DNA of 64,000 nt. It comes from Candidatus Saccharimonadota bacterium. GTDB lineage: Bacteria > Patescibacteriota > Saccharimonadia > Saccharimonadales > Saccharimonadaceae. Position numbers and translations under genes: made by a program. The stretch spans positions 2,050 to 66,049 of the forward strand of contig JAFONX010000011.1 of NCBI GenBank assembly GCA_017418275.1, written 5' to 3'. Positions 12,151 through 63,898 of the stretch are shown piece by piece. Positions within the stretch are counted from its first letter, which is position 1. Each line of letters starts with the position of its first letter. The notes under the pieces were generated by a model. That model ran no database searches. It saw only the letters and a program-made list of their open reading frames with translations, and had not been told where the DNA came from.

Positions 12151-13928
12151 AACAATCCAGCTCCTTGTAAAGTAACATTAATTAAGTTCGCATATACCCT
12201 TCGACCTTCAAAATTCAAATGAATATGGTCATCATAAAGTAGCTCCGGATGCGAAACTGCAATTGACCACCAGTCTGCATAATATACTCCATCATGACTA
12301 TCCGCAAAGCTTTTAATTGCAGCGTTTTGCGTTTCGCGTGGTTGCTCCTCGCTAGCGTAGCCGGTTACAAATACTACAACCGAACCACGCGCACTATCCA
12401 CAACCTCCTGCATAATAGCATCCGTGAAAGTGCGTTCATTAGTCGCCAAGCTTACCACAACCACGGGTGGCACCGAGCCACTCGCCGCCGCCGAATCCAA
12501 AATTACATGCGCTTTTTCGATACCGCGCGACTCCATGGCATCTACATATACGCCAGGGATCGCCGCCTCAAGATCCGCTTTAGCGCCCAAGGTCACAGAG
12601 TCACCAATCACGAGCACCGAAGCGCTATTTATGTCCATACTTGGCGAAGCTGGCATGGGCGGGATCCAAGCGGTCGCAGCTTCTTTTTCGTCTGTTTCGG
12701 CTTGCACAGCGCGTTCATGCACGTTTTCAATTAACTCGCCCAAATCTAATGTTTGAACATAACTAATTTTTTGCGCCCCATGTTCGGTCTCCATCGCTTC
12801 GAGCTGGGTGGTAATATTCGACCTTGCCGGAATTGAACACAGAGAAAAAATCGCAAAGCCGGTCGGGAGCGCCAAACATATCAAACTATGACGCAGTTGT
12901 AGGCGCAGAATCCTCGTCGCTATAGTCGTCAGAATCAGGCTCAAAACCACACAGAGCACTACGTTGGTCGTCGCATTAATCTGAAAGATGCGCGGCAAAA
13001 GAATATATAGAGGCCAATGAAATAGATAAACACCAAAGGAATACTTACCTAAGTATTCTAATGGACGCAGTAGACGTGGCAAACTCGTACGTCTCCGTTG
13101 CAGGCGCAAAATCGCCGCCACAATAATAACGCCTAGTAAAGCCGCCAGTTGCAAAGAGCCCGCGAAAGCTTGCGAGAAATCGATCTTAATCGCTAATATT
13201 AGAAATGTTATCACCGCGGCAACCAGCACTGGTATAGCAGGCCAGCGACGGCGGCGACTCGGGTAAGGACGAAGAAGGCGCCAAGCCGCCAAAGCAACCC
13301 CACCATAAAACGCGAAAGCTTGTGTATCAGGCGCAAAATACGCTCGGTTTATTTCATCAAAGATAACCGCATAGGCATACATCAAAGCCGCCGAAATCAG
13401 CGAGATGCAGACCGAGAGCAAAAGCATGTGCTTGAGGACTTTTTTAAAACTCCGGGCTTTCAGTATAGCAAGGTTTAAAACAATCGGCAGACTCAGACAC
13501 AGTTGAAACTCAAGCGCCAAAAACCAACAATGCTCAAACAGGTTCGGCATAGTCAAATCTTCATAACTACCACCCTGCGCTATCTCCTGGATATTTGTAG
13601 AGAACAACAAGGCGAACAAAGCGTCCAAATGTAACCCTTCTAGCACGCCGTGCGGGCTAAAGAAGGCTAAGCAAAGCGTAAAAACGACACAAACAAATAG
13701 CGCCGGCCACAGGCGCATCAGGCGACGAAGGACAAATTTACCACCCCGAACGGCTTTTGTCTTTTTGTAGGTATTGAGTAATCCGGTTCCTAGCAGATAA
13801 CCCGAAATCGCCAAGAAGATTTCGACCGCCAAAAAACCGCCCGGCAAAACGCCACGAAAAAAGTGATATATCGCAATCAAAGCGATCGCAAAGAGGCGTA
13901 GAGTATCAAGCCCAACTACCCAACTCAT
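12147..13928 (-). CDS. OatA-like acyltransferase-3 membrane domain fused to an SGNH/GDSL-type hydrolase domain (593 aa)
   Basis: The N-terminal ~370 aa are polytopic with the acyltransferase_3 start (LDTLRLFAIALIAIYHF). The C-terminal soluble domain carries VLVIGDSVTLG, a GDS(L) block. TATAAT (13935-13940) lies 6 nt before the ATG. Confidence 0.75.
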   Translation of the reverse strand: MSWVVGLDTLRLFAIALIAIYHFFRGVLPGGFLAVEIFLAISGYLLGTGLLNTYKKTKAVRGGKFVLRRLMRLWPALFVCVVFTLCLAFFSPHGVLEGLHLDALFALLFSTNIQEIAQGGSYEDLTMPNLFEHCWFLALEFQLCLSLPIVLNLAILKARSFKKVLKHMLLLSVCISLISAALMYAYAVIFDEINRAYFAPDTQAFAFYGGVALAAWRLLRPYPSRRRRWPAIPVLVAAVITFLILAIKIDFSQAFAGSLQLAALLGVIIVAAILRLQRRRTSLPRLLRPLEYLGKYSFGVYLFHWPLYILLPRIFQINATTNVVLCVVLSLILTTIATRILRLQLRHSLICLALPTGFAIFSLCSIPARSNITTQLEAMETEHGAQKISYVQTLDLGELIENVHERAVQAETDEKEAATAWIPPMPASPSMDINSASVLVIGDSVTLGAKADLEAAIPGVYVDAMESRGIEKAHVILDSAAASGSVPPVVVVSLATNERTFTDAIMQEVVDSARGSVVVFVTGYASEEQPRETQNAAIKSFADSHDGVYYADWWSIAVSHPELLYDDHIHLNFEGRRVYANLINVTLQGAGLL

Positions 13929-52594: not shown

Positions 52595-53440
52595 TTAGCC
52601 GGCGAAGTACTCGTACCACTTGCGCGCATACTCGCGGCGTGAATCCGTAGCCTGGTACAACTCGCCACAATACGGTGAGTAGTATTCGACCGGGCTCCAC
52701 CCGTCGACTGCTCTCTCGTAATGCACGAGGAATATTTCAGCGGCCAGTTCCGGACTATCTGCTGTTCGAAGCTCAGACATCCAGGTAGGATCCTCTTCGT
52801 CCATAGTGTAATCCAATAGGATATCCATGTACGTCTCAAAATCCTCCTTGCTGTCGAAGGCGCTCTCGCCAAAGCCCCAATACTCGGGAGCAGCATACTT
52901 GCCAACTCCAGCAGCATCAAAGGCGGCGAACATTTCGTCGCGCTGCGGATAATCCATTAGCTGGAATAGGCCAAATCCTCCGCCCTCAACGCCGCGCGAA
53001 GGTTCAAGACCACTCTCGGCTTCGGCATTACCGATAATGCCGGCGATCTGCGCGGTAGTATAACCTTTCGCGCTAAAGTACGCGTAGATTTTTTCCGCTA
53101 CGAGCTCATCCGTGAGCTCAAAGGGCTCTTCGGTAACCTCCTCGACGATTGCTTCGGTATGATCCGGATCGGAATCGGTTGCTTCGGCGGTCGTCTCGAC
53201 GGATTCCGCAGTCAAAACAGTTTCCTTCGGGGCAGACTCTTTGCCGAGGGCAACAGTTTCCACCTCCCTAGCTCGCATAGCCTCGCTCGGATGCTCGACT
53301 ACATATACGTAAGGCGACGCCTCGTCGCTAGTATCCGGAAGATCAGATACATGCTCCTTTTCGCCATAGGCATTCAGGGCAAAGCCCTGTACCAATATTG
53401 CTAGAGTTGCGCCTGCTAGTACGACTATTGGTTTCCTCAT
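52595..53440 (-). CDS. Secreted protein with a phage-tail-lysozyme-like (Phage_lysozyme2-type) domain
   Basis: Signal peptide MRKPIVVLAGATLAILVQGFALNAYG. The core IAGIIGNAEAESGLEPS...GGGFGLFQL resembles the GNxxxESGxxP...GxGxxQW blocks of that family. Consensus promoter (TTGACA, 17 nt, TATAAT) and SD aaggagag. Confidence 0.5.
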   Translation of the reverse strand: MRKPIVVLAGATLAILVQGFALNAYGEKEHVSDLPDTSDEASPYVYVVEHPSEAMRAREVETVALGKESAPKETVLTAESVETTAEATDSDPDHTEAIVEEVTEEPFELTDELVAEKIYAYFSAKGYTTAQIAGIIGNAEAESGLEPSRGVEGGGFGLFQLMDYPQRDEMFAAFDAAGVGKYAAPEYWGFGESAFDSKEDFETYMDILLDYTMDEEDPTWMSELRTADSPELAAEIFLVHYERAVDGWSPVEYYSPYCGELYQATDSRREYARKWYEYFAG

Positions 53441-55686: not shown

Positions 55687-56325
55687 CTAACGAAGCTGTT
55701 CAAGCAGACTCTTAATACCTTCGGATTGAATATCCCAGTAAGCCTTCCAGTAATCCCCATCCGAGAGTTCGGAATCGTATTTCCACTCACCATCAATATT
55801 AATCTTCAGGACCGGCGCAAGGCAGAAGCCAGGCACGCGCACAGATGAGATTTTGTCGACTAGCTTAATGTCCTTTGGATCAGTCGAAACCATTGTATGT
55901 ATGACCTTAATTTCGTCGCCTTCGTGCCAAGCTAAACCAAAGCCCCAATTAAAGCGGCACGGAACTTCCCCGTTATATTTACTTGCAACTTCAGCAAAAG
56001 TCTCCGCGCCAAGATCATCAGTATATCGACCTTTACGAGCAATAACGAAGGCCTTGTTATGATTCTTAGGGTCATCTTCCTCAGATACGCCAAGCAGATC
56101 ACAGGTGTCGTCGCGAGCGAGAACAGGCAAAGCTTTATACTGTTTTGCGTAACCTAGCGCTTTCTCAGCTGCAATGTCTTCGGCAGTAAGTTGAGTTTCT
56201 TCCGGTTCTTCAAGATCAAGGTCTAAATCGGCAAAAGATAGACCTTCGCAACCTAGGCGTGCAAGAATTTTCTTGAAGCTTGCAATCTTCCCAGGATTAG
56301 TAGTAGCAAGCAGAATTTGTTTCAT
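55687..56325 (-). CDS. Ham1/RdgB-like non-canonical purine NTP pyrophosphatase family protein (212 aa)
   Basis: Start at ATG 56325 (MKQILLATTNPGKIASFKKIL, the family N-terminal signature), preceded by SD aagaggag. The 39-codon upstream extension of the ORF has no support. Confidence 0.55.
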   Translation of the reverse strand: MKQILLATTNPGKIASFKKILARLGCEGLSFADLDLDLEEPEETQLTAEDIAAEKALGYAKQYKALPVLARDDTCDLLGVSEEDDPKNHNKAFVIARKGRYTDDLGAETFAEVASKYNGEVPCRFNWGFGLAWHEGDEIKVIHTMVSTDPKDIKLVDKISSVRVPGFCLAPVLKINIDGEWKYDSELSDGDYWKAYWDIQSEGIKSLLEQLR

Positions 56326-56429
56326 TTTGAGCTCCTCTTTGAGGGTATTATAACAAGAATCTACTGTAAGTCTTAGACTCACGAATGCGCCAAAAAATAA
56401 TCTGGAGTTTTGGGTTAAAATAAAAGTAT

Positions 56430-56747
56430 ATGTCGACCACAAAACTCTTCCTCGAAACCGTTATTGCTAAGCTCGATAAACTCCCCCTTGAAATCACTTC
56501 CCGCCCGATGATGGGCGAATATCTACTCTATGCAGACGGCGTGCTATTCGGCGGACTATATGATAATCGTTTCCTAATCAAGAAGACTAGCATGAACCAA
56601 GCTTTCGATTTACCCGAGGCAATTCCCTATAGTAACACAAAGAAGACAATGTATCAGATTGAAGATTTGGATAATCCACGGCTCACAAAGATCATTAACG
56701 CAACAATAGGAGACCTAATAAGCTGTTCGAGAAGCTGCTCAACCTGA
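56430..56747 (+). CDS. TfoX N-terminal-domain-like protein (105 aa)
   Basis: TSRPMMGEYLLYADGVLFGGLYDNRFLIK resembles the TfoX_N core (MFGgyglY.dG..Fg...d..LylK). Confidence 0.45.
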   Translation: MSTTKLFLETVIAKLDKLPLEITSRPMMGEYLLYADGVLFGGLYDNRFLIKKTSMNQAFDLPEAIPYSNTKKTMYQIEDLDNPRLTKIINATIGDLISCSRSCST

Positions 56748-56873
56748 GCCATGAATTCCTTGGAGAGATGCTCGAGCAACAAGATAGAGAGATGCGTCTT
56801 GAGGTTTTTGAGATATGCAAAGGAATAACTTATTCCTACAATGTCATTGATATAATGGTAACTAAGGAATTAT

Positions 56874-57248
56874 ATGTATAATAACGCTCAAACTAACAGG
56901 ATTATAGAGCACATAAAGGCTGAGTATGGCGCCGAGCTAGAATTCTTATGGCCAGATCGTTATCCAGTTTGCGCTATTTTTCGTCATGGCGACAACCATA
57001 AATGGTTTACGTTAATTGGCGCAATTAAAAGTACGAGTCTAGGAATTGAGGAAGATAAAGAAATAGAAATCATCAACCTGAAGTTCGATAAAGGTCAAGC
57101 GTTGGATTTCGCCGAATCAAACGAACATATCTTCCCGGCTTATCATATGAATAAATACAACTGGATTACGATTATTCTAGACGATTCTTTAGAAGATAAT
57201 GCTATATTTGAACTCATAAAAAAGAGCTATTTATTGACGGCAAAATAG
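56874..57248 (+). CDS. MmcQ/YjbR-family DNA-binding protein
   Basis: 124 aa. LEFLWPDRYPVCAIFRH..NHKWFTLI...INLKFD...HMNKYNWITIILD is typical of the family. Confidence 0.65.
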   Translation: MYNNAQTNRIIEHIKAEYGAELEFLWPDRYPVCAIFRHGDNHKWFTLIGAIKSTSLGIEEDKEIEIINLKFDKGQALDFAESNEHIFPAYHMNKYNWITIILDDSLEDNAIFELIKKSYLLTAK

Positions 57249-57378: not shown

Positions 57379-57421
57379 AATTACTGTGGATTTTTAACCA
57401 AAATGATCATAAGATCCGATC

Positions 57422-57619
57422 ATGAAATATACGACCACAACAGAAGAAACCGTCGCTAAAGACTTCGAAATCGAAGCCAATAGCGCTGATGAAGCCTATG
57501 AAACGGCAGAACAGAAACACAAGGATGGCGAGTTCGTCCTAGATCCTGGCGATTGCCAGTTCAAGCAGATAGCTATTACGGCACCGAGTAGTAGAACTGC
57601 AGAATGGCGAGAATTCTAG
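57422..57619 (+). CDS. DpnD/PcfM-like small acidic protein (65 aa)
   Basis: The pattern VAKDFEIEANSADEAYETAEQKHKDGEFVLDPGD..FKQIAI resembles small DpnD/PcfM-family proteins of plasmids and restriction cassettes. The start overlaps the stop of a 19-codon uORF (ATGA). Confidence 0.45.
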   Translation: MKYTTTTEETVAKDFEIEANSADEAYETAEQKHKDGEFVLDPGDCQFKQIAITAPSSRTAEWREF

Positions 57620-59757
57620 ATTTCTTGGATTCCGAGACTCTTTAGATACTCGTACGTTCCGTCGTAGAATTCAGGCAGACGTGTACTATCTTCCCAGAAA
57701 CCATTCGGAGATTTATCCTTATTCCCCTCAGGAACACAAATAATCATACCGGCACGAGCGCGCGTAAGTAGCACGCGATACGCATTCAGCATATACTTCT
57801 GTTTTTCGCGATTATTTTCAGTCCTTCCGAGTTGCTCAATCCATTTCGTATTACCATTAAAGGAGTAATAATGCCATCTTCCATTCTCGTATCGCATATC
57901 AGCGTCCCAGAGCAAGCAAGTGTAATCTAGCTCGAGCCCCTGCACTTGAATCTCTGTCGCTGCATCTTCAAGATAGTTCGACGAGCGCGTGTCGGTTTTA
58001 TCTTCCAAAAACCAATGAACAGCATTCTCGTCGCCAGAAGGAAGAATATGAATAGCCAAGGGCTTGAATCGCGCTGCTTCCTTAGTAACGAGCACGCCGG
58101 TTCGTTCAGTGCCTCTCGCTTTCTCATGTAGCCATTTTCGCGCCTTAGCCATATCACGAGTTAGCAGAATGGGATACTTATCTTTTATCTCGCTATACAG
58201 CTCCGAAGCGTTATCATCAAAAGCGAGCAAAGAGTGAACGAAGGCGGATACTTTTTCAGAACGATACGAGCGGAGTGAAACGCTCAGATGTAAATCATTC
58301 GAGTATGCCACATTCGGATTATCAGCCAAAAGCTCATTAACTTTGCCCTCGGCATATTCCGGTTCGGTTAGCTCTGGAGAGATATAAACATTCCAGTGAC
58401 GATACTTTTCATTAAGGGCTTTTATCCACTCAGAGATACCTGCTTCGCCAGTATTAATTTCTTGACCACCGCCAACTAGACAAACAATAACCGCCCAGTC
58501 CTTGCGTTGGTCAAGCGACCAAATCAAGAAAGCTGCTTCCGACATCGGAAAATTCGGAACTTTGAGCTTATTACCGTATGTTCCGCCGCGTTTTAAGTAA
58601 TTGGCGAGCCTTTCATGCGTCCACGAGCGCTGCGCCTCATCGAATATAGCGACATGTTCGACCTCACCAAAGCCAGATGCGCCCATTTCGACGGCCTTAT
58701 TTGGATCTATCTCCAGAACGCCGTTCTCGACTGGATTTTTAATTTTCGCGAGCATATTATCGCGATAGCGATGAATCATCTGAATAGATTTACGAACTTC
58801 GCGACGAGAATCAGTAAGCTTCTTCTGTCCGCCACGCGCCTTTGCTTTCCTGAAATTATCCTGCGCTAAAGCCTCATTTAAAACTGCCACAAGTGGCCCA
58901 TTTCCAGATAAATATACTGCTCCGTCATCTTTTGCCGGCTCGTTAGAACCATCGCGATACGTTTGTTTAATTGCTACATCTAGACCAACCAATGTTTTGC
59001 CGGCGCCAGGAACGCCCGTAACAAAACAAATGCTTTTCTTTCCATTCTTCTCGCTATCCCGAATGACATCTAAGATGTATCGAATCGTTCTATCTGTAGA
59101 AACATTATCCGCTTCATGGCGAGTAATATCTTCCACGGAGTGGTTTTCGTATAACGAGCGAGCAGCTTCAATAATCGTTGGGGTGGGAGCATATGGGCTA
59201 ATTGACCACCTCTCGTCAACCGGCATCTCGTCTGGATAAGCACACAATACATTTTCAATCACATTACTAAGCTCGTTACTGTTCGAAACGAGCGGATTGA
59301 TAACTCTGTCGTCATAAACGGACATTTGAACTTGCGTCGAATAATTTGCATAATTTGTCGCAACGAGAATAGGTGCAATGATTTTGTCTTCGCTAAATTT
59401 ATGGAAGTTTTTCAAATCTAGCGCATAGTCAAAGACTTGATCGATATCGGCCTCCAGAATATTGGCTTGGCCAACCTTAAACTCGATGCAGAAAATGATG
59501 CCGCGATAAAGCAAAACTACATCTACGCGCTTGCCCAAACGCGGGATATCGTATTCGAATATTATGCGCCCGCTTTTATCATTCAGCCTTGCCACAATAT
59601 TGCGCATGGCTAGTATTTCTTCCTTCCATGCGTCAACTTGCGTCGTCTGTACTTGCCCATTATAGTTTTCAACAAGAATTCCCATAATAGACTTTTCGTC
59701 ACTATCTAGGAAACCACATAAATCGTTTTCGTATAGGCAGCGAGGACTCTTATTCAT
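57616..59757 (-). CDS. DUF2075-type protein: N-terminal PD-(D/E)xK-like nuclease core plus Schlafen-group-III-like P-loop helicase (713 aa)
   Basis: RVDVVLLYRGIIFCIEFKVG gives the D...ExK core. Walker A is VTGVPGAGKTLVG, Walker B is VAIFDEAQRSW and the C-terminal motif is YRVLLTRARAGMIICV. The start overlaps the Nudix gene by 8 nt. Confidence 0.75.
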   Translation of the reverse strand: MNKSPRCLYENDLCGFLDSDEKSIMGILVENYNGQVQTTQVDAWKEEILAMRNIVARLNDKSGRIIFEYDIPRLGKRVDVVLLYRGIIFCIEFKVGQANILEADIDQVFDYALDLKNFHKFSEDKIIAPILVATNYANYSTQVQMSVYDDRVINPLVSNSNELSNVIENVLCAYPDEMPVDERWSISPYAPTPTIIEAARSLYENHSVEDITRHEADNVSTDRTIRYILDVIRDSEKNGKKSICFVTGVPGAGKTLVGLDVAIKQTYRDGSNEPAKDDGAVYLSGNGPLVAVLNEALAQDNFRKAKARGGQKKLTDSRREVRKSIQMIHRYRDNMLAKIKNPVENGVLEIDPNKAVEMGASGFGEVEHVAIFDEAQRSWTHERLANYLKRGGTYGNKLKVPNFPMSEAAFLIWSLDQRKDWAVIVCLVGGGQEINTGEAGISEWIKALNEKYRHWNVYISPELTEPEYAEGKVNELLADNPNVAYSNDLHLSVSLRSYRSEKVSAFVHSLLAFDDNASELYSEIKDKYPILLTRDMAKARKWLHEKARGTERTGVLVTKEAARFKPLAIHILPSGDENAVHWFLEDKTDTRSSNYLEDAATEIQVQGLELDYTCLLWDADMRYENGRWHYYSFNGNTKWIEQLGRTENNREKQKYMLNAYRVLLTRARAGMIICVPEGNKDKSPNGFWEDSTRLPEFYDGTYEYLKSLGIQEI

Positions 59758-60145
59758 TTTTAAGTCCCTTGATTACGACTTCGTCGGCAGGAAGCCAGTT
59801 AATAGAGTCGAGCTCATCGCGATGGAGCCACTTGGCCGCATCATGTTCCATAAGCGTTAAGGTGCCACTTTTCACCTTCGCCAGGAAGCAGTCCATGCTT
59901 AAATGAAAACTTGGGTAATCATACTCTACCGTACATAGTTTGTCGCCTACATTAATCTCCGTGTCGAGCTCTTCTTTTATCTCACGGTGTAGCGCCTCCT
60001 TCGGAGTCTCGCCTACTTCGATTTTCCCTCCAGGAAACTCCCAGTATCCTCTCCATTCGCCATAGCCTCTTTGGGTGGCAAAAAACTTATCGCCATTAGT
60101 AATGACAGCAGCTGCGACTCGGATTACTTTATTTGTAGAACTCAT
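59750..60145 (-). CDS. Nudix hydrolase, MutT/NudG-like (d)NTP pyrophosphohydrolase (131 aa)
   Basis: Nudix box GGKIEVGETPKEALHREIKEELD, with typical MutT length and layout. Confidence 0.85.
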   Translation of the reverse strand: MSSTNKVIRVAAAVITNGDKFFATQRGYGEWRGYWEFPGGKIEVGETPKEALHREIKEELDTEINVGDKLCTVEYDYPSFHLSMDCFLAKVKSGTLTLMEHDAAKWLHRDELDSINWLPADEVVIKGLKNE

Positions 60146-60448
60146 AATAATTCTTGATTAGATCTTATCATAAAACATACAAAAACCTTAGGATAACAGA
60201 GATAAGTACATGCTTATGCTTTCGATATTTGTGATAGTTGCTTTAATTGATGCATGAGTCTTTTTCAGGAATTCCAAAGTCACGAAAAGCTGCTCGGCCG
60301 AAGAAAACTTGAGGCTATGGATTTTTATATTTTAAATACCAAAAAGAACCTGAAATACGAAGAAATCATTTATATTAAACGCAATTTCGAAGAGTTTGAA
60401 CACTGGTATTATTCATCTTATCTACAAGATAAGTGTTACAATCGTAGC

Positions 60449-60763
60449 ATGGATGAAGTTAGTAAAGCCGTCGTGGATTTTACGCGCGAACGAGATTGGG
60501 ATCAGTTTCATTCGCCAGAAAACTTAGCGAAGTCTATTGCTATTGAGTCGGGCGAACTTCTTGAATGTTTCCAATGGAATTCTAACTTTGACAAAAAAGA
60601 AGTCTGCAAAGAACTAGCTGACATCGTAAACTATAGTATCCTTTTAGCAGACAAACTCGGCGTGAGACTTGAAGATATTGTGATGGAAAAGCTGGAAGAA
60701 AACCGCAAAAAATATCCGGTCGAAAAAGCCAAAGGTAAAAGTACGAAATACACAAAGCTATGA
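60449..60763 (+). CDS. MazG-like all-alpha nucleotide pyrophosphohydrolase (104 aa; ORF extends to 60254)
   Basis: VDFTRERDWDQFHSPENLAKSIAIESGELLECFQW....ELADIVNYSILLADKLGV matches the EExxE/D-type four-helix MazG/dCTPase-like core. ATG 60449 lies 6 nt after the extended -10 TGtTACAAT. The upstream 65 codons are AT-rich with no motif. Confidence 0.7.
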   Translation: MDEVSKAVVDFTRERDWDQFHSPENLAKSIAIESGELLECFQWNSNFDKKEVCKELADIVNYSILLADKLGVRLEDIVMEKLEENRKKYPVEKAKGKSTKYTKL

Positions 60764-62640
60764 TAGTTTACCAAGACACGAAGAAGCAATTCATTGATGA
60801 TGTAAATCTAAACCAAATCGTAAATAAAATATACGATGAGTATATTCCTCGCTTTGGGCACACTACAGAATCACAGCTTCGTGCTTGGCAACACTCGATG
60901 CAATATATGCGTGGCGTGCTAGACTCAAATGAAATCCCAGAAGACGCCGGCGTAGCAATCGAATATAACATTCAGCCAACATCTAAGCGCATTGATTTTC
61001 TTCTTTCTGGCAAAGATGAAAAGGGAAATTATACAGCAATAATCGTAGAGCTTAAGCAATGGGATAGTTGTGAAGCAGTGCTCGACGAAGATGGCGTAGT
61101 TGAAACTTACGTTGGCGGCGGAAATCGCAAAGTGGCGCATCCAAGCTATCAAGCGATGAGCTACAAGCATTTGATTCAAGATTATAATGAGGCCGCGCAA
61201 GAGGGTCCGATATATCTATTTCCATGCGCATTCTTACATAATTACCGCATTGAGCCAGAAGATCCGATCATAGATCCACAATATGACGACTATCTTGCCG
61301 AGGCACCAGTTTTCGGCGCTAATGATTTCGAGAAACTGCGCAATTTTATAAAGAATCATCTTTCAACTGGCGATAAGGGTGAAACGATATTCAAGATCGA
61401 GTATGGCCGAATTCGTCCATCAAAAATGCTGCAGGATTCTATTGTGCGTATGCTTCAAGGCAAGAAAGAATTCATACTTATCGACACACAGAAAATCGTC
61501 TACGAACGCGCAAAAAGAATCGCACGCAAATCCGAATTCGACAATAAAAAGCATGTACTAATCGTGAAAGGCGGTCCTGGCACTGGCAAAACAGTGCTTG
61601 CAATAAACTTACTCTCTGACTTCATTAACGAGAGTATGTCCGCATTCTATGTTACAAAGAATCAAGCGCCACGCGCAGTATTCAAGCAAAAACTCAAAGA
61701 TGGTGGCTTTAAGAAAATATTTATCGATACATTGTTTCAAAGCTCTGGTAGCTTTATTGATAATCCGACAAATAGTATCGATTGCCTGTTAGTCGATGAG
61801 TCGCATCGTTTGAATGAAAAATCCGGAATGTTCTCAAATAGAGGCGAAAACCAGACAAAAGAGATTATTAATGCGGCAAAATTCTCCGTTTTCTTCATCG
61901 ACGAGGCGCAACGGGTAACTCTCAAAGACAAAGGCACGATAGCGGATATCAAGAAGTTTGCCGAGGCGCAAAATGCCGAAATTGAAGAGATTGAACTCGA
62001 CAGCCAGTTCCGTTGCAATGGCTCTGATGGCTACCTTGCTTGGTTGGATAACCTGCTCGAGATTCGAGAGACTGCAAATGCCAACTCACTCGAGTATGAT
62101 TATGATTTTAGAGTATTCGACGACCCGAATGAATTATTTAACGCGATTGTAAAACGAAACAGTAACAACAAGGCACGTATGGTGGCCGGGTACTGTTGGG
62201 ATTGGAAAAAGAATAGCCAGAATGATCCGAGCTCTTATGATATTGTTATCCCAGAATTTGGGTTCGCAAAAAGCTGGAACCTGGGCAATACCTCAACATT
62301 TGCGATTGACCCCGAGTCGGTAGAGCAAATTGGCTGTATTCACACTACGCAAGGTTTGGAATTTGACTATGTCGGCGTAATCATTGGCGACGATATGCGC
62401 TTCGAGGACGGAAGAATTGTCACGGACGCCACCAAGCGCGCAAAGACCGACTCTTCGCTCAAGGGCCTAAAGAAGCTAATTGCCGAAGATCCAGACAAGG
62501 CAGAAAAAGTTGCCGATAAAATCATTAAGAATACGTACCGCACACTCATGACACGAGGAATGAAAGGTTGCTACGTCTATTGCACCGATACATCGCTTGC
62601 GGAATATTTAAAAGCGAGCCTCGCAAGGCTTAATAAATAA
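60760..62640 (+). CDS. DUF2075-type protein: N-terminal PD-(D/E)xK-like nuclease core plus Schlafen-group-III-like P-loop helicase (626 aa)
   Basis: RIDFLLSGKDEKGNYTAIIVELKQW gives the D...ExK core. Walker A is VKGGPGTGKTVLA, Walker B is LLVDESHR / VFFIDEAQRV and the C-terminal motif is YRTLMTRGMKGCYVYC. The start overlaps the MazG-like stop in ATGA. Confidence 0.8.
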   Translation: MIVYQDTKKQFIDDVNLNQIVNKIYDEYIPRFGHTTESQLRAWQHSMQYMRGVLDSNEIPEDAGVAIEYNIQPTSKRIDFLLSGKDEKGNYTAIIVELKQWDSCEAVLDEDGVVETYVGGGNRKVAHPSYQAMSYKHLIQDYNEAAQEGPIYLFPCAFLHNYRIEPEDPIIDPQYDDYLAEAPVFGANDFEKLRNFIKNHLSTGDKGETIFKIEYGRIRPSKMLQDSIVRMLQGKKEFILIDTQKIVYERAKRIARKSEFDNKKHVLIVKGGPGTGKTVLAINLLSDFINESMSAFYVTKNQAPRAVFKQKLKDGGFKKIFIDTLFQSSGSFIDNPTNSIDCLLVDESHRLNEKSGMFSNRGENQTKEIINAAKFSVFFIDEAQRVTLKDKGTIADIKKFAEAQNAEIEEIELDSQFRCNGSDGYLAWLDNLLEIRETANANSLEYDYDFRVFDDPNELFNAIVKRNSNNKARMVAGYCWDWKKNSQNDPSSYDIVIPEFGFAKSWNLGNTSTFAIDPESVEQIGCIHTTQGLEFDYVGVIIGDDMRFEDGRIVTDATKRAKTDSSLKGLKKLIAEDPDKAEKVADKIIKNTYRTLMTRGMKGCYVYCTDTSLAEYLKASLARLNK

Positions 62641-63001
62641 TTACTCCTTATCCCCTGCGAAGACCTTTTATGAAACTACTAGGTATGCACCCTTTTCAAA
62701 ATAATCAATTGCATGGTTGTGGACTGGCGTATCGACCACCCCGAATACACCGCTAAAATCAAGGTTATACCCAGGAAAGATTATCCGGCGCTAATGCCGT
62801 GCGAGTTCTGAGGTATACATATACGGGCAACGGGATTCGAACTTTTAAGATGATACAGCTTTATTGGAGCCGCAGAGACTTAAAACAATGACATTAGAGG
62901 AAATAAAAGCAATGCAATATTAATGGTATAGATTTCGCAACTTAGCGTTTAAAATTATCTAAAACATTTATTTTTAACGTAAAATTTGATATAATAGAAG
63001 C

Positions 63002-63898
63002 ATGATTAATCAAGTTACAAAAGATAGAATTAATAGCTTGTCCGAAGAATATCGCAAGCTAGTTATTCGGCATAAAGAAGCCATAAAGGAGTTCGCTATT
63101 TCCGAACTTCCAGAAATGGTTTACAATTCCAATGCTATTGAGAATTCTACTCTTACGCTTGAAGACACTGAGGATATCCTGATTCGCAACCAAATCCGTA
63201 CCGATCATGAGATTCGCGAGATTTATGAAGCAAAGAACCTCGCTAGTGCCATAGAATATCTGATGGATAACCCAGAAAAAGAGATTTCAGTAGAGTTAAT
63301 CTTGAAACTACATAAAACCCTACTTACAAATATCCGTGACGAGATCGCCGGTCGTTTCCGTTCCGGTAAAGAGTGGGTACGTGTCGGTACGCATATTGGC
63401 GCCAATCCAGAATTCGTAAACGGTTTTATGCATGATTTGGTTAGAGATTATAACTCCAGTAACGATGAATATTTCTTGAAAAAAATTGCATACTTCCACG
63501 CAGAATTCGAAAACATTCACCCATTCGGTGATGGTAATGGTCGCATTGGACGTTTGCTTACAAACGAGCAATTAGACATGCTCGGTTTGCCGCCAATTAT
63601 TATCCCGAATAAATCGAAATTCGATGAATACTACCCTGCTCTTGACGAATATACAAAAACCAATAAAGCAGATAAGCTAACTGAGCTATTTGCGAGCCTA
63701 TTAATTGAAGCGCTATATCGCCGTATTACTAAGCTTACAGCCAAGAAGATTATTCCAGTTGCCGACTGGGCCAAGAATAATGGCACAAATCTCCAATCTG
63801 CAACCAATAAGGCTATTCGCGGAACCATACCAGCATTTAGAGTTAGAGGGCATTGGATGATTGATGGAGAATACCGAGGACAAGTTGATGGTAACTAA
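63002..63898 (+). CDS. Class II Fic-domain protein (AMPylase family) with an N-terminal inhibitory helix motif
   Basis: The Fic motif HPFGDGNGRIGR (nt 63518-63553) matches HxFx(D/E)GNGRxxR. The alpha-inh motif SNAIEN (nt 63128-63145) matches (S/T)xxxE(G/N). TGaTATAAT lies 6 nt before the ATG. Confidence 0.85.
   Translation: MINQVTKDRINSLSEEYRKLVIRHKEAIKEFAISELPEMVYNSNAIENSTLTLEDTEDILIRNQIRTDHEIREIYEAKNLASAIEYLMDNPEKEISVELILKLHKTLLTNIRDEIAGRFRSGKEWVRVGTHIGANPEFVNGFMHDLVRDYNSSNDEYFLKKIAYFHAEFENIHPFGDGNGRIGRLLTNEQLDMLGLPPIIIPNKSKFDEYYPALDEYTKTNKADKLTELFASLLIEALYRRITKLTAKKIIPVADWAKNNGTNLQSATNKAIRGTIPAFRVRGHWMIDGEYRGQVDGN

Follow-up and report, generated by a model that had tools for sequence, protein, structure and literature searches.

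The DNA considered here is a stretch of 64,000 nucleotides (nt), hereafter called the window, from contig JAFONX010000011.1 of a Candidatus Saccharimonadota bacterium (assembly GCA_017418275.1), a member of the Saccharibacteria or TM7 group. Near its 3' end, two two-gene modules are arranged head to head in a compact cassette (Table 1). Each module is predicted to consist of a nuclease-helicase of the Nhi-like kind, termed protein A in one and protein B in the other, and a translationally coupled small (deoxy)nucleoside triphosphate ((d)NTP) pyrophosphohydrolase with intact catalytic residues, which is a Nudix protein beside A and a MazG-like protein beside B. The Nudix stop and the A start share 8 nt on the minus strand (59750-59757, reading ATGAATAA), and the MazG-like stop overlaps the B start in ATGA at 60760-60763. 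A DpnD/PcfM-like gene is convergent with A and overlaps the end of A by 4 nt. The four open reading frames (ORFs), their coordinates, both coupling overlaps and every motif quoted in an earlier note on this DNA were all found in the sequence or its translations, and Pfam bore out the Nudix, MazG, DUF2075/Schlafen-type, Fic and DpnD/PcfM assignments made there.

Table 1. Features of the cassette and adjoining DNA, in window coordinates.
Feature	Position	Strand	Evidence or remark
Cassette, 5.3 kb: DpnD/PcfM, A, Nudix, MazG-like, B	57387..62711		86% nucleotide identity with related Saccharibacteria loci L014-L018
DpnD/PcfM-like gene, 65 amino acids (aa)	57422..57619	+	PF14207, E = 3.9e-8
Protein A, 713 aa, Nhi-like nuclease-helicase, PADLOC PDC-S41 type	57616..59757	-	PF09848, 8e-68
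A N-terminal domain, ~residues 1-180, probable PD-(D/E)XK nuclease	59218..59757	-	E68, D79, E92-x-K94, Q107
A superfamily 1 (SF1)-type helicase/ATPase domain, residues 241-676	57730..59037	-	PF09848; GVPGAGKT, FDEAQR, YRVLLTR
Nudix hydrolase, 131 aa, MutT/NudG clade, PADLOC PDC-S07 type	59750..60145	-	PF00293, 1e-18; also PF14815
Divergent intergenic/control region	60146..60448		includes the doubtful 65-codon 5' extension of MazG, 60254-60448
MazG-like all-alpha NTP pyrophosphohydrolase, 104 aa, DCTPP1-like	60449..60763	+	PF12643, 9e-18
Protein B, 626 aa, second, distantly related nuclease-helicase of Nhi-like type	60760..62640	+	PF09848, 3e-101
B N-terminal domain, ~residues 1-210	60760..61389	+	E68, D79, E97-x-K99, Q100
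B helicase domain, residues 264-610	61549..62589	+	PF09848; GGPGTGKT, DESH and DEAQ motifs, YRTLMTR
Fic-domain gene, adjoining but outside the common cassette	63002..63898	+	PF02661; PADLOC PDC-S04 8e-40, SoFic 8e-32

The start of the MazG-like gene had been given as either 60449 or 60254. It is most probably 60449, giving 104 aa, because relatives outside TM7 are mostly 104-107 aa long and start at the equivalent position, and because a TM7 relative (L016) has a 20-nt deletion within the 60254-60448 extension, which makes the upstream start doubtful. A regulatory RNA in this extension was considered and dropped, since an Rfam search of the stretch gave no match and its 96% identity falls within the range seen inside gene A. 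A promoter and terminator scan did not rise above shuffled expectation, and intergenic promoter matches were at consensus level only. A search for terminal repeats, att sites and a nearby tRNA at the cassette ends found only short, chance-level repeats; the single tRNA lies 57 kb from the cassette.

Both A and B carry an N-terminal nuclease-like domain and a PF09848 (formerly DUF2075, Schlafen group 3) helicase in one polypeptide. BLASTP aligns the two proteins in patches only, at 24-29% identity with E of about 1e-5. When profiles built from about 80 homologues each are compared by hhalign, the N-domains align over 168 columns with their motifs in register (E = 3.9e-5) and the helicase parts align with E = 8.7e-10. 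On these alignments A and B are judged to be homologous over both domains, but distantly. The kinship proposed in the earlier note therefore stands, but the proteins are distant homologues and not recent paralogues, duplication in the recent past being ruled out by the patchy identity and the distant profile match.

In the N-domain of A, residues E68, D79, E92-x-K94 and Q107 are at least 95% conserved across 82 homologues, and in that of B the same holds for E68, D79, E97-x-K99 and Q100 across 84 homologues. Both N-domains have a predicted alpha-beta-beta-beta-alpha-beta topology, which is that of the canonical PD-(D/E)XK core; the A N-domain is modelled with a predicted local distance difference test (pLDDT) score of about 85. 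A Foldseek search with the A model ranked mainly PD-(D/E)XK nucleases at the top (Cdn1, the AddAB nuclease domain, Hjc and R.BspD6I), all weakly, with a best E of 0.026 for Cdn1. N-domain profiles gave no match in the PDB, single-sequence PDB searches with A and B returned nothing useful, and against Pfam at E <= 10 the N-domains matched NERD alone (E = 0.18). The N-domains of A and B are probable PD-(D/E)XK nuclease folds. Thus, of the nuclease-helicase layout claimed from the sequence, PF09848 and a conserved E...D...ExK...Q domain are present in both proteins, and the nuclease fold is the weaker part (Foldseek E of at least 0.026). No Schlafen core (AlbA_2-type) N-domain was matched by Pfam in A or B, either with the full-length proteins or with the N-domains alone, and no modified-base reader domain (SRA, PUA/EVE, McrB-N or DUF3427) was recognised by Pfam in the four window proteins.

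The helicase motifs, with Walker A, Walker B and the YRVLLTR block of A or YRTLMTR block of B, are invariant in the homologue alignments of both proteins. The full-length AlphaFold model of A is poor outside the N-domain (overall pLDDT 53.8), and its fold search is only suggestive. The model of B (pLDDT 77.5) retrieved SLFN11 first (7.5e-11), followed by RecD2, Dna2, Dda and Upf1, which indicates an SF1B-type helicase. Two DE motifs of B are invariant, LLVDESHR at residues 343-350 and FFIDEAQR at 378-385. Because LLVDESHR sits opposite FDEAQR when B is aligned to the Nhi-like protein, FFIDEAQR is probably not the Walker B motif of B, and the earlier assignment of FIDEAQR to that role is probably wrong.

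The architecture of A and B is that of known defence proteins. Nhi of Staphylococcus epidermidis (SERP2475) is a defence protein with a nuclease and a DUF2075 helicase (Bari et al. 2022), and Nhi-like of Bacillus cereus FSL H8-0482, carried on a 2.3-kb insert, is a verified single-gene anti-phage protein (Millman et al. 2022). Phages whose own DNA methylase has been inactivated escape the verified Nhi-like protein, and they evade Dazbog in the same way, the gene lost there being the SPR cytosine methylase; in this respect Nhi-like resembles Dazbog and type IV-like restriction. Protein A is collinear with the verified Nhi-like protein over both domains (27% identity, residues 10-451, E = 2e-34), the comparison being made with a 399-aa fragment from the supplement of the Millman preprint that represents most of the verified sequence. 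Bacillus plasmid proteins were retrieved reciprocally by A in tblastn, with 89-94% of A covered. Protein B matches the verified protein at 24% identity over 326 residues (E = 3e-7). Nhi-like thus has the same layout as A and B, with an N-terminal nuclease domain and a PF09848 helicase in a single polypeptide. However, the verified gene protects alone, and on B. cereus plasmids neither a Nudix nor a MazG gene is annotated next to it, whereas each large gene of the window is translationally coupled to a pyrophosphatase gene and two divergent family members stand head to head. Nhi has the same PD-(D/E)XK plus DUF2075 SF1B architecture, with Dda, Upf1 and Dna2 as structural neighbours; unlike for the window modules, no pyrophosphatase partner has been reported for it.

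Searches of PADLOC place A and the Nudix protein within known candidate families. A matches the PDC-S41 profile (PDLC05014) with E = 1.8e-246 (residues 6-713 against profile positions 3-653 of 657), and the Nudix protein matches PDC-S07 (PDLC04899) with E = 7e-49 (residues 6-130 against 5-130 of 135). B matches PDC-S41 in fragments only (E = 1.6e-17) and does not reach membership. Against the Nhi profile PDLC02372 neither large protein reaches a full-length match, A aligning at residues 238-264 only (E = 4.5e-4) and B at residues 252-421 only (E = 7e-14). In PADLOC v2 the MazG-like protein has no match and B has partial matches only, so that neither is represented; the PADLOC check proposed in the note therefore classified two of the four proteins. 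PADLOC treats PDC-S41 and PDC-S07 as separate single-gene candidates, but in the loci studied here they frequently form one operon. We take the PDC entries to be unvalidated candidates.

Literature searches on DUF2075 or Nhi with MazG or Nudix, and on PDC-S41, found no relevant paper, and a 2026 paper names MazG among predicted defence domains, 'none ... experimentally validated'. The statement in the earlier note that no named, validated system has this composition thus holds for the pyrophosphatase pairing, but not for the large proteins, whose architecture is that of the named and validated Nhi and Nhi-like. In short, the large proteins belong to a known, validated kind, and the partner-specific coupling to pyrophosphatases is new. 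The helicase domain of the group III Schlafen proteins such as SLFN11, the top structural match of B, belongs to the same Pfam family, but their N-domain has the Schlafen core/tRNA nuclease fold instead of the PD-(D/E)XK-like one of A and B.

Both small proteins appear to be enzymes and not degenerate adaptors, because their catalytic residues are conserved in relatives. The Nudix protein scores 67.6 bits against PF00293 (cutoff 21.1) and contains the Nudix box GGKIEVGETPKEALHREIKEELD, catalytic Glu included (consensus GX5EX7REUXEEXGU); the RE..EE residues of the box are conserved in 28 Nudix neighbours of A-type genes. Its best PDB match is 3gwy, a 'putative CTP pyrophosphohydrolase' (2e-27), followed by MutT and NudG, and no equivalog cutoff of NCBIfam was reached. 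The MazG-like protein scores 64.7 bits against PF12643 (cutoff 27), its metal ligands ExxE...ExxD (E33, E36, E55, D58) are at least 95% conserved in 58 relatives, and its best PDB match is dCTP pyrophosphatase 1/RS21-C6 (E = 2.4e-18). DCTPP1 and NudG favour 5-modified dCTP and MutT favours 8-oxo-dGTP, the common theme being removal of non-canonical dNTPs. These best solved relatives, whose metal-binding residues are kept in the window proteins, convert (d)NTP to (d)NMP and pyrophosphate. DCTPP1 and MutT/NudG are stand-alone housekeeping genes, however, whereas the window enzymes are operonic, clade-specific partners of defence-type nuclease-helicases in a mobile cassette.

Two further proteins are related to this theme. 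A 489-aa protein (P0275) carries a MazG-like domain 62% identical to that of the window fused to an SNF2-related helicase domain; it was the only helicase fusion among ten longer relatives scanned with Pfam, taken from the top 150 MazG relatives. In the window itself, a 251-aa protein with a partial Ham1/ITPase-like Pfam domain is encoded at 55687-56442 (-), about 1 kb outside the cassette and outside the block common to other TM7 genomes; it represents a third house-cleaning NTP-pyrophosphatase fold near the Nudix and MazG genes.

Partner pairing was assessed by calling ORFs in 80 species-level A-type loci from a genome scan and 80 B-type loci from a metagenome scan and querying them with the window proteins. 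The MazG-like gene is the only conserved neighbour of B-type genes (54-55 of 77 loci). Among the 59 B-type loci that have 450 nt or more of flanking sequence on each side, it lies on the B strand in 46, being immediately upstream in 22, immediately downstream in 12 and separated from B by inserted genes in another 12; it is absent from the remaining 13. The Nudix gene is by far the commonest conserved neighbour of A-type genes. Of 74 loci with downstream sequence, it follows A immediately in 14 and lies further downstream on the same strand in 8; its position upstream of A, as in the window, is found in TM7 only. Partners are on the same strand as the large gene, usually within 60 nt or overlapping.

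A cross-control shows that the pairing is specific. Nudix genes occur in 24 of 78 A-type loci and in 3 of 77 B-type loci (p = 1e-5), and MazG-like genes occur in 2 of 78 A-type loci and in 55 of 77 B-type loci (p = 3e-21); both MazG-like cases among the A-type loci also carry a B gene. The pairing is therefore far above chance and the partner specificity is strict, Nudix going with A and MazG-like with B. The proposal that two non-homologous pyrophosphatase folds are specific partners and not chance neighbours is thus confirmed, and co-occurrence of DUF2075 genes with Nudix or MazG genes is above background in both the A-type and the B-type loci sampled. B and MazG-like proteins co-diverge (Mantel r = 0.66, p <= 5e-4), and co-divergence of A and Nudix proteins is weak (r = 0.13, p = 0.047). 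No partner is found in about 22% of the B-type loci with both flanks assessable and in about 70% of the A-type loci. Comparative genomics thus supports a specific partnership strongly for MazG-B and moderately for Nudix-A.

Individual loci extend this picture. On the haloarchaeal plasmid of Halalkalicoccus, the DUF2075 gene is preceded at a distance of 5 nt by an annotated 'nucleotide pyrophosphohydrolase', and the B-type gene of Microcystis phage Mwe-JY31 (PP438423) has a MazG-like gene directly upstream. The Priestia aryabhattai plasmid NZ_CP083270 (L186 1460-5366) carries in a row mutT, an McrB-N-like gene (DUF3578), a MazG-like pyrophosphohydrolase gene and a DUF2075 gene of B type (39% identity). 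This single locus, which sits between a restriction endonuclease and a type I restriction-modification (R-M) system, combines the two pyrophosphatase folds with a modified-cytosine reader. The Priestia locus, the only one with an McrB-N-like gene, resembles modification-dependent restriction in its reader, but A and B themselves have no recognised reader domain. On the Hymenobacter canadensis plasmid NZ_CP114769 (L188 3001-6987), two tandem B-type paralogues (671 and 369 bits to B) occur without a MazG-like gene and adjoin a DNA methyltransferase and a DUF4747 gene. In a Firmicutes clade (L010-L013; for example L010 5001-9514), an N6_N4 DNA methyltransferase gene overlaps the 3' end of the B-type gene, with a DndB-like gene next in line. 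On the upstream side, 327 nt separate the B-type gene from the MazG-like gene, which is itself preceded by AbiEi-Fic, and one copy stands at a prophage end beside an endolysin.

Some B-type proteins have additional domains. Pfam finds a C-terminal S24 (LexA/UmuD-like) peptidase domain in those of L172 (5001-7391) and L173 (1368-3833), and the B-type ORFs of L176, L177, L179, L180 and L181 have a C-terminal extension of similar length. A standalone S24 peptidase lies between MazG and B in L121 (4563-4979), and a 138-aa ORF closely similar to it occupies the same position in L128 (3665-4081). These S24 domains hint at activation triggered by RecA or single-stranded DNA in those B-type clades.

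The A and B modules also recur together. Beyond TM7 they are adjacent in six loci (L038, L056, L061, L063, L126 and L143), of which L056, L061 and L143 have all four genes. In L056 (Lachnospiraceae), B, MazG, A and Nudix all point the same way, with junctions that overlap or measure 2 nt. These four genes are also present in L061, where a methyltransferase and an HNH gene interrupt the row. In L143, A is accompanied by a Nudix-methyltransferase fusion, an unannotated gene, B and MazG; the row in L126 is A, MazG, reverse transcriptase, B; that in L063 is B, A, Nudix-methyltransferase fusion; and in L038 (5001-9091), a Methanobrevibacter metagenome-assembled genome (MAG) whose binning is unverified, an A-type gene (75% identity) and a B-type gene are convergent. 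In all, about 4-5% of loci have the two modules side by side, and with the window counted there are at least seven arrangements. This adjacency is more than coincidence, yet it is a minority pattern, and in our view the A and B modules are separable and tend to move together, without forming an obligate four-gene system. The Nudix-methyltransferase fusions near A-type genes (L063 7179-8192 and L143 2748-3731) carry a class-I, small-molecule-type SAM methyltransferase (Methyltransf_25/11, TehB-like), and in L061 (2872-4601) the methyltransferase and the HNH protein are encoded by separate genes.

Within TM7, identical or near-identical proteins are labelled Candidatus Saccharibacteria. The block 57387-62711 is common to related TM7 contigs but both of its flanks differ; other TM7 copies are flanked by RloB/AAA_15 and HerA on one side and by VanZ, Der and Pth on the other. 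The DpnD/PcfM-like gene is present in all TM7 copies of the cassette. Its matches are few, with 5 in the first locus set and none listed beside any B-type locus, and it belongs to the cassette only in TM7. Compared with L014 4625-9942, the window is a mosaic, with identities of 93% for A, 92% for MazG, 87% for Nudix and 78% for both B and DpnD, falling to 69% in the B part at 62033-62332. Either the histories of the two modules differ, or B evolves faster, perhaps within a region that sets specificity. In L016 (4323-6494), A is split into ORFs of 458 and 208 aa and is apparently a pseudogene, with Nudix, MazG and B intact.

Relatives of A at 65-78% identity are found in Firmicutes, Bacteroidota, Spirochaetes, Fibrobacter, Kiritimatiellia and one Methanobrevibacter MAG, and relatives of B at 50-64% identity are found in many metagenomes, on plasmids of Methanosphaera (NZ_CP118754), Halalkalicoccus (NC_014298), Halomonas and Hymenobacter, and in Microcystis phage Mwe-JY31. 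Outside TM7, the closest relatives are in gut and rumen Firmicutes. These identities are evidence that A-type and B-type genes have probably spread between domains of life and through viruses. Because the cassette occupies different sites in related TM7 and has patchy relatives across phyla, plasmids and a phage, it is supported as a horizontally mobile accessory gene set. A conserved core housekeeping locus, which the earlier note had named as an alternative, does not describe a cassette found at different chromosomal sites in related TM7. The note had also placed the locus in an AT-rich accessory stretch; its accessory nature is supported, but the AT-richness is modest (GC 0.38-0.46 around the cassette against 0.40-0.51 over the window).

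The upstream genes of the window are core genes (SecA, SerRS, QueH and ZnuA), which rules out that the cassette here lies within a large defence island. At other loci, the contexts are those of defence or mobile elements: Gabija, recombinases, AbiEi-Fic, a prophage end, type I R-M, Mrr and reverse transcriptase. Fic genes lie near the MazG-B modules of L010, L013, L163, L171, L176 and L182, and no Fic gene adjoins the cassette in L014. In a more distant TM7 genome (L020 6001-7878), a B-type gene of 63% identity stands alone, with no MazG, and a YjbR gene about 5 kb from it (13046-13420) is 74% identical to the YjbR gene flanking the cassette in the window (56873-57235). The surroundings of YjbR may thus form a hotspot of variation in these genomes.

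A defence role of the cassette is supported by the homology of A to the verified Nhi-like protein and by the defence-gene neighbourhoods elsewhere, and the anti-phage role suggested in the earlier note has gained support on the same grounds. The locus as a whole is, on balance, best read as a mobile two-module defence cassette in which nuclease-helicases are accompanied by self-protective accessory pyrophosphatases. That it is a defence cassette with a genuine functional pairing is very probable; self-protection as the specific role of the pyrophosphatases is proposed tentatively. If it behaves like its homologues Nhi and Nhi-like, the large protein would be sensor and effector in one, loading on foreign DNA and unwinding and degrading it with ATP. 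Judging from the closest characterised relatives, the pyrophosphatase would be an accessory enzyme that hydrolyses non-canonical dNTPs, most likely 5-modified dCTP.

Because phages escape through methylase loss, the verified Nhi-like protein appears to act on methylated phage DNA. Degradation of modified phage DNA by the nuclease-helicase would release modified nucleotides, which, once re-phosphorylated and incorporated, would expose the host chromosome itself to attack. A pyrophosphatase acting on modified dCTP or damaged dNTPs would block this re-incorporation, and self-protection would then be its most likely job; a second possible job would be to starve phages that build their DNA from modified dNTPs. 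Because the verified Nhi-like protein works alone and many loci have no partner, we infer that the partner is helpful, not essential. The self-protection model would explain why the partner is common but dispensable, why two folds with the same chemistry were recruited and why regulatory domains are lacking. A bolder and rather doubtful proposal is that such modules constitute an unrecognised two-component immunity class, in which a dNTP-sanitising pyrophosphatase provides self-protection like an R-M methyltransferase, but in reverse. 5-Methyl- or 5-hydroxymethyl-dCTP from degraded phage DNA would be kept out of the host chromosome, so that the modification-sensing nuclease-helicase would attack foreign DNA only, and each of the two family branches would independently have co-opted an unrelated fold for this task.

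Several points weigh against the self-protective defence cassette. For the nuclease fold of the N-domains, the sequence and structure searches gave no significant match. The pyrophosphatase substrates are extrapolated from relatives at about 40% identity, and the Nudix protein could equally be an 8-oxo-dGTPase. The A-Nudix coupling is loose (31% of loci, with the low Mantel r given above), and 182 loci yielded no fusion of MazG with B or of Nudix with A. Methylation dependence is known for the B. cereus protein only, which is 27% identical to A, and the N6/N4 DNA methyltransferase and DndB-like genes that follow some B-type genes would fit an enzyme that is blocked by methylation.

The alternative that survives best, although rather unlikely, is that the pyrophosphatase is the effector, the nuclease-helicase sensing phage DNA and its partner depleting the dCTP or dNTP pool in analogy to the defensive dCTP deaminase and dGTPase. 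It would agree with a dCTP pyrophosphatase as the closest solved relative of the MazG-like protein, with the conserved catalytic residues and with the tight operonic coupling and co-divergence with B. Consistently, dNTP-depleting defence effectors are discussed in the literature, including rare MazG-like replacements, such MazG-like effectors being predicted in PUA-HAD systems, and MazG is among the predicted defence domains. The defensive dCTP deaminase, dGTPase and PUA-Calcineurin-CE-HAD systems act on dNTPs during infection, but they have no sequence kinship to the window proteins and are regulated effectors without a nuclease-helicase. However, neither the 104-aa nor the 131-aa enzyme carries a sensor or regulatory domain, and unregulated depletion of canonical dNTPs would be toxic. 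Moreover, enzymes of the DCTPP1 and MutT/NudG types characteristically favour non-canonical substrates, the verified Nhi-like protein protects without such a partner and many loci have none.

It is decidedly unlikely that functional coupling is lacking altogether, the Nudix (PDC-S07) and MazG-like genes being independent defence or house-cleaning genes that defence islands pack together. PADLOC does model A and Nudix as separate single-gene candidates, the A-Nudix association is partial (24 of 78 loci) with weak co-divergence, and heterogeneous genes are sometimes inserted between MazG and B. However, MazG accompanies A essentially only where B is there too and Nudix seldom accompanies B, the partners are on the same strand and usually within 60 nt or overlapping, no gene other than MazG is a conserved neighbour of B in bacteria, archaea and a phage, and B and MazG co-diverge.

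A regulatory role of the small enzyme, which would hold the nuclease-helicase inactive like an antitoxin or remove a nucleotide-derived activating or inhibiting signal, is highly unlikely. The translationally coupled two-gene layout with flexible gene order recalls toxin-antitoxin and nuclease-NTPase pairs, the S24 LexA-like autocleaving domains in or beside some B-type proteins suggest regulated activation, and modified nucleotides are documented as defence triggers, but the cassette encodes no signal-synthesising enzyme (cyclase or nucleotidyltransferase) and the strictly conserved metal ligands argue for a real hydrolase and not for a purely structural inhibitor. That the cassette serves not defence but DNA repair or replication restart, with dNTP-pool sanitisers acting for the host or a mobile element, is most improbable, since, although MutT-type and DCTPP1-type enzymes and SF1B helicase-nucleases such as Dna2 and RecD2 are classical genome-maintenance proteins, the genes are distributed patchily at 65-78% identity across unrelated phyla and even archaeal MAGs, occupy sites that differ between close relatives, one of which has a pseudogene, are carried on plasmids, at a prophage end and by a phage, and are homologous to a verified defence protein, the core genes being those that flank the cassette in the window (SecA, SerRS, ZnuA).

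Apart from the cassette, one protein encoded among the core genes deserves mention. The 281-aa product of window 52595-53440 (-) has a PF18013 'phage tail lysozyme' domain and a hydrophobic N-terminus that, on visual inspection of the translation, resembles a signal peptide. The protein may serve the episymbiont as a cell-wall hydrolase.

The modules described here are not a categorically new system but a widespread, well-defined and easily testable two-gene module. The MazG-B pair, conserved, co-diverging, present in bacteria, archaea and a phage and easily cloned, is the first concrete candidate for a MazG defence module. As PDC-S41 and PDC-S07 often form one operon, the annotation of such loci should change. 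Recruitment of the same chemistry twice through unrelated folds suggests that removal of particular (d)NTPs matters to how nuclease-helicases work or stay safe. Because the helicase domain is common to the human Schlafen restriction factors, mechanistic insight may carry over to them. For the Saccharibacteria, it means that an episymbiont with a reduced genome devotes 5.3 kb to this cassette, which was apparently acquired horizontally.

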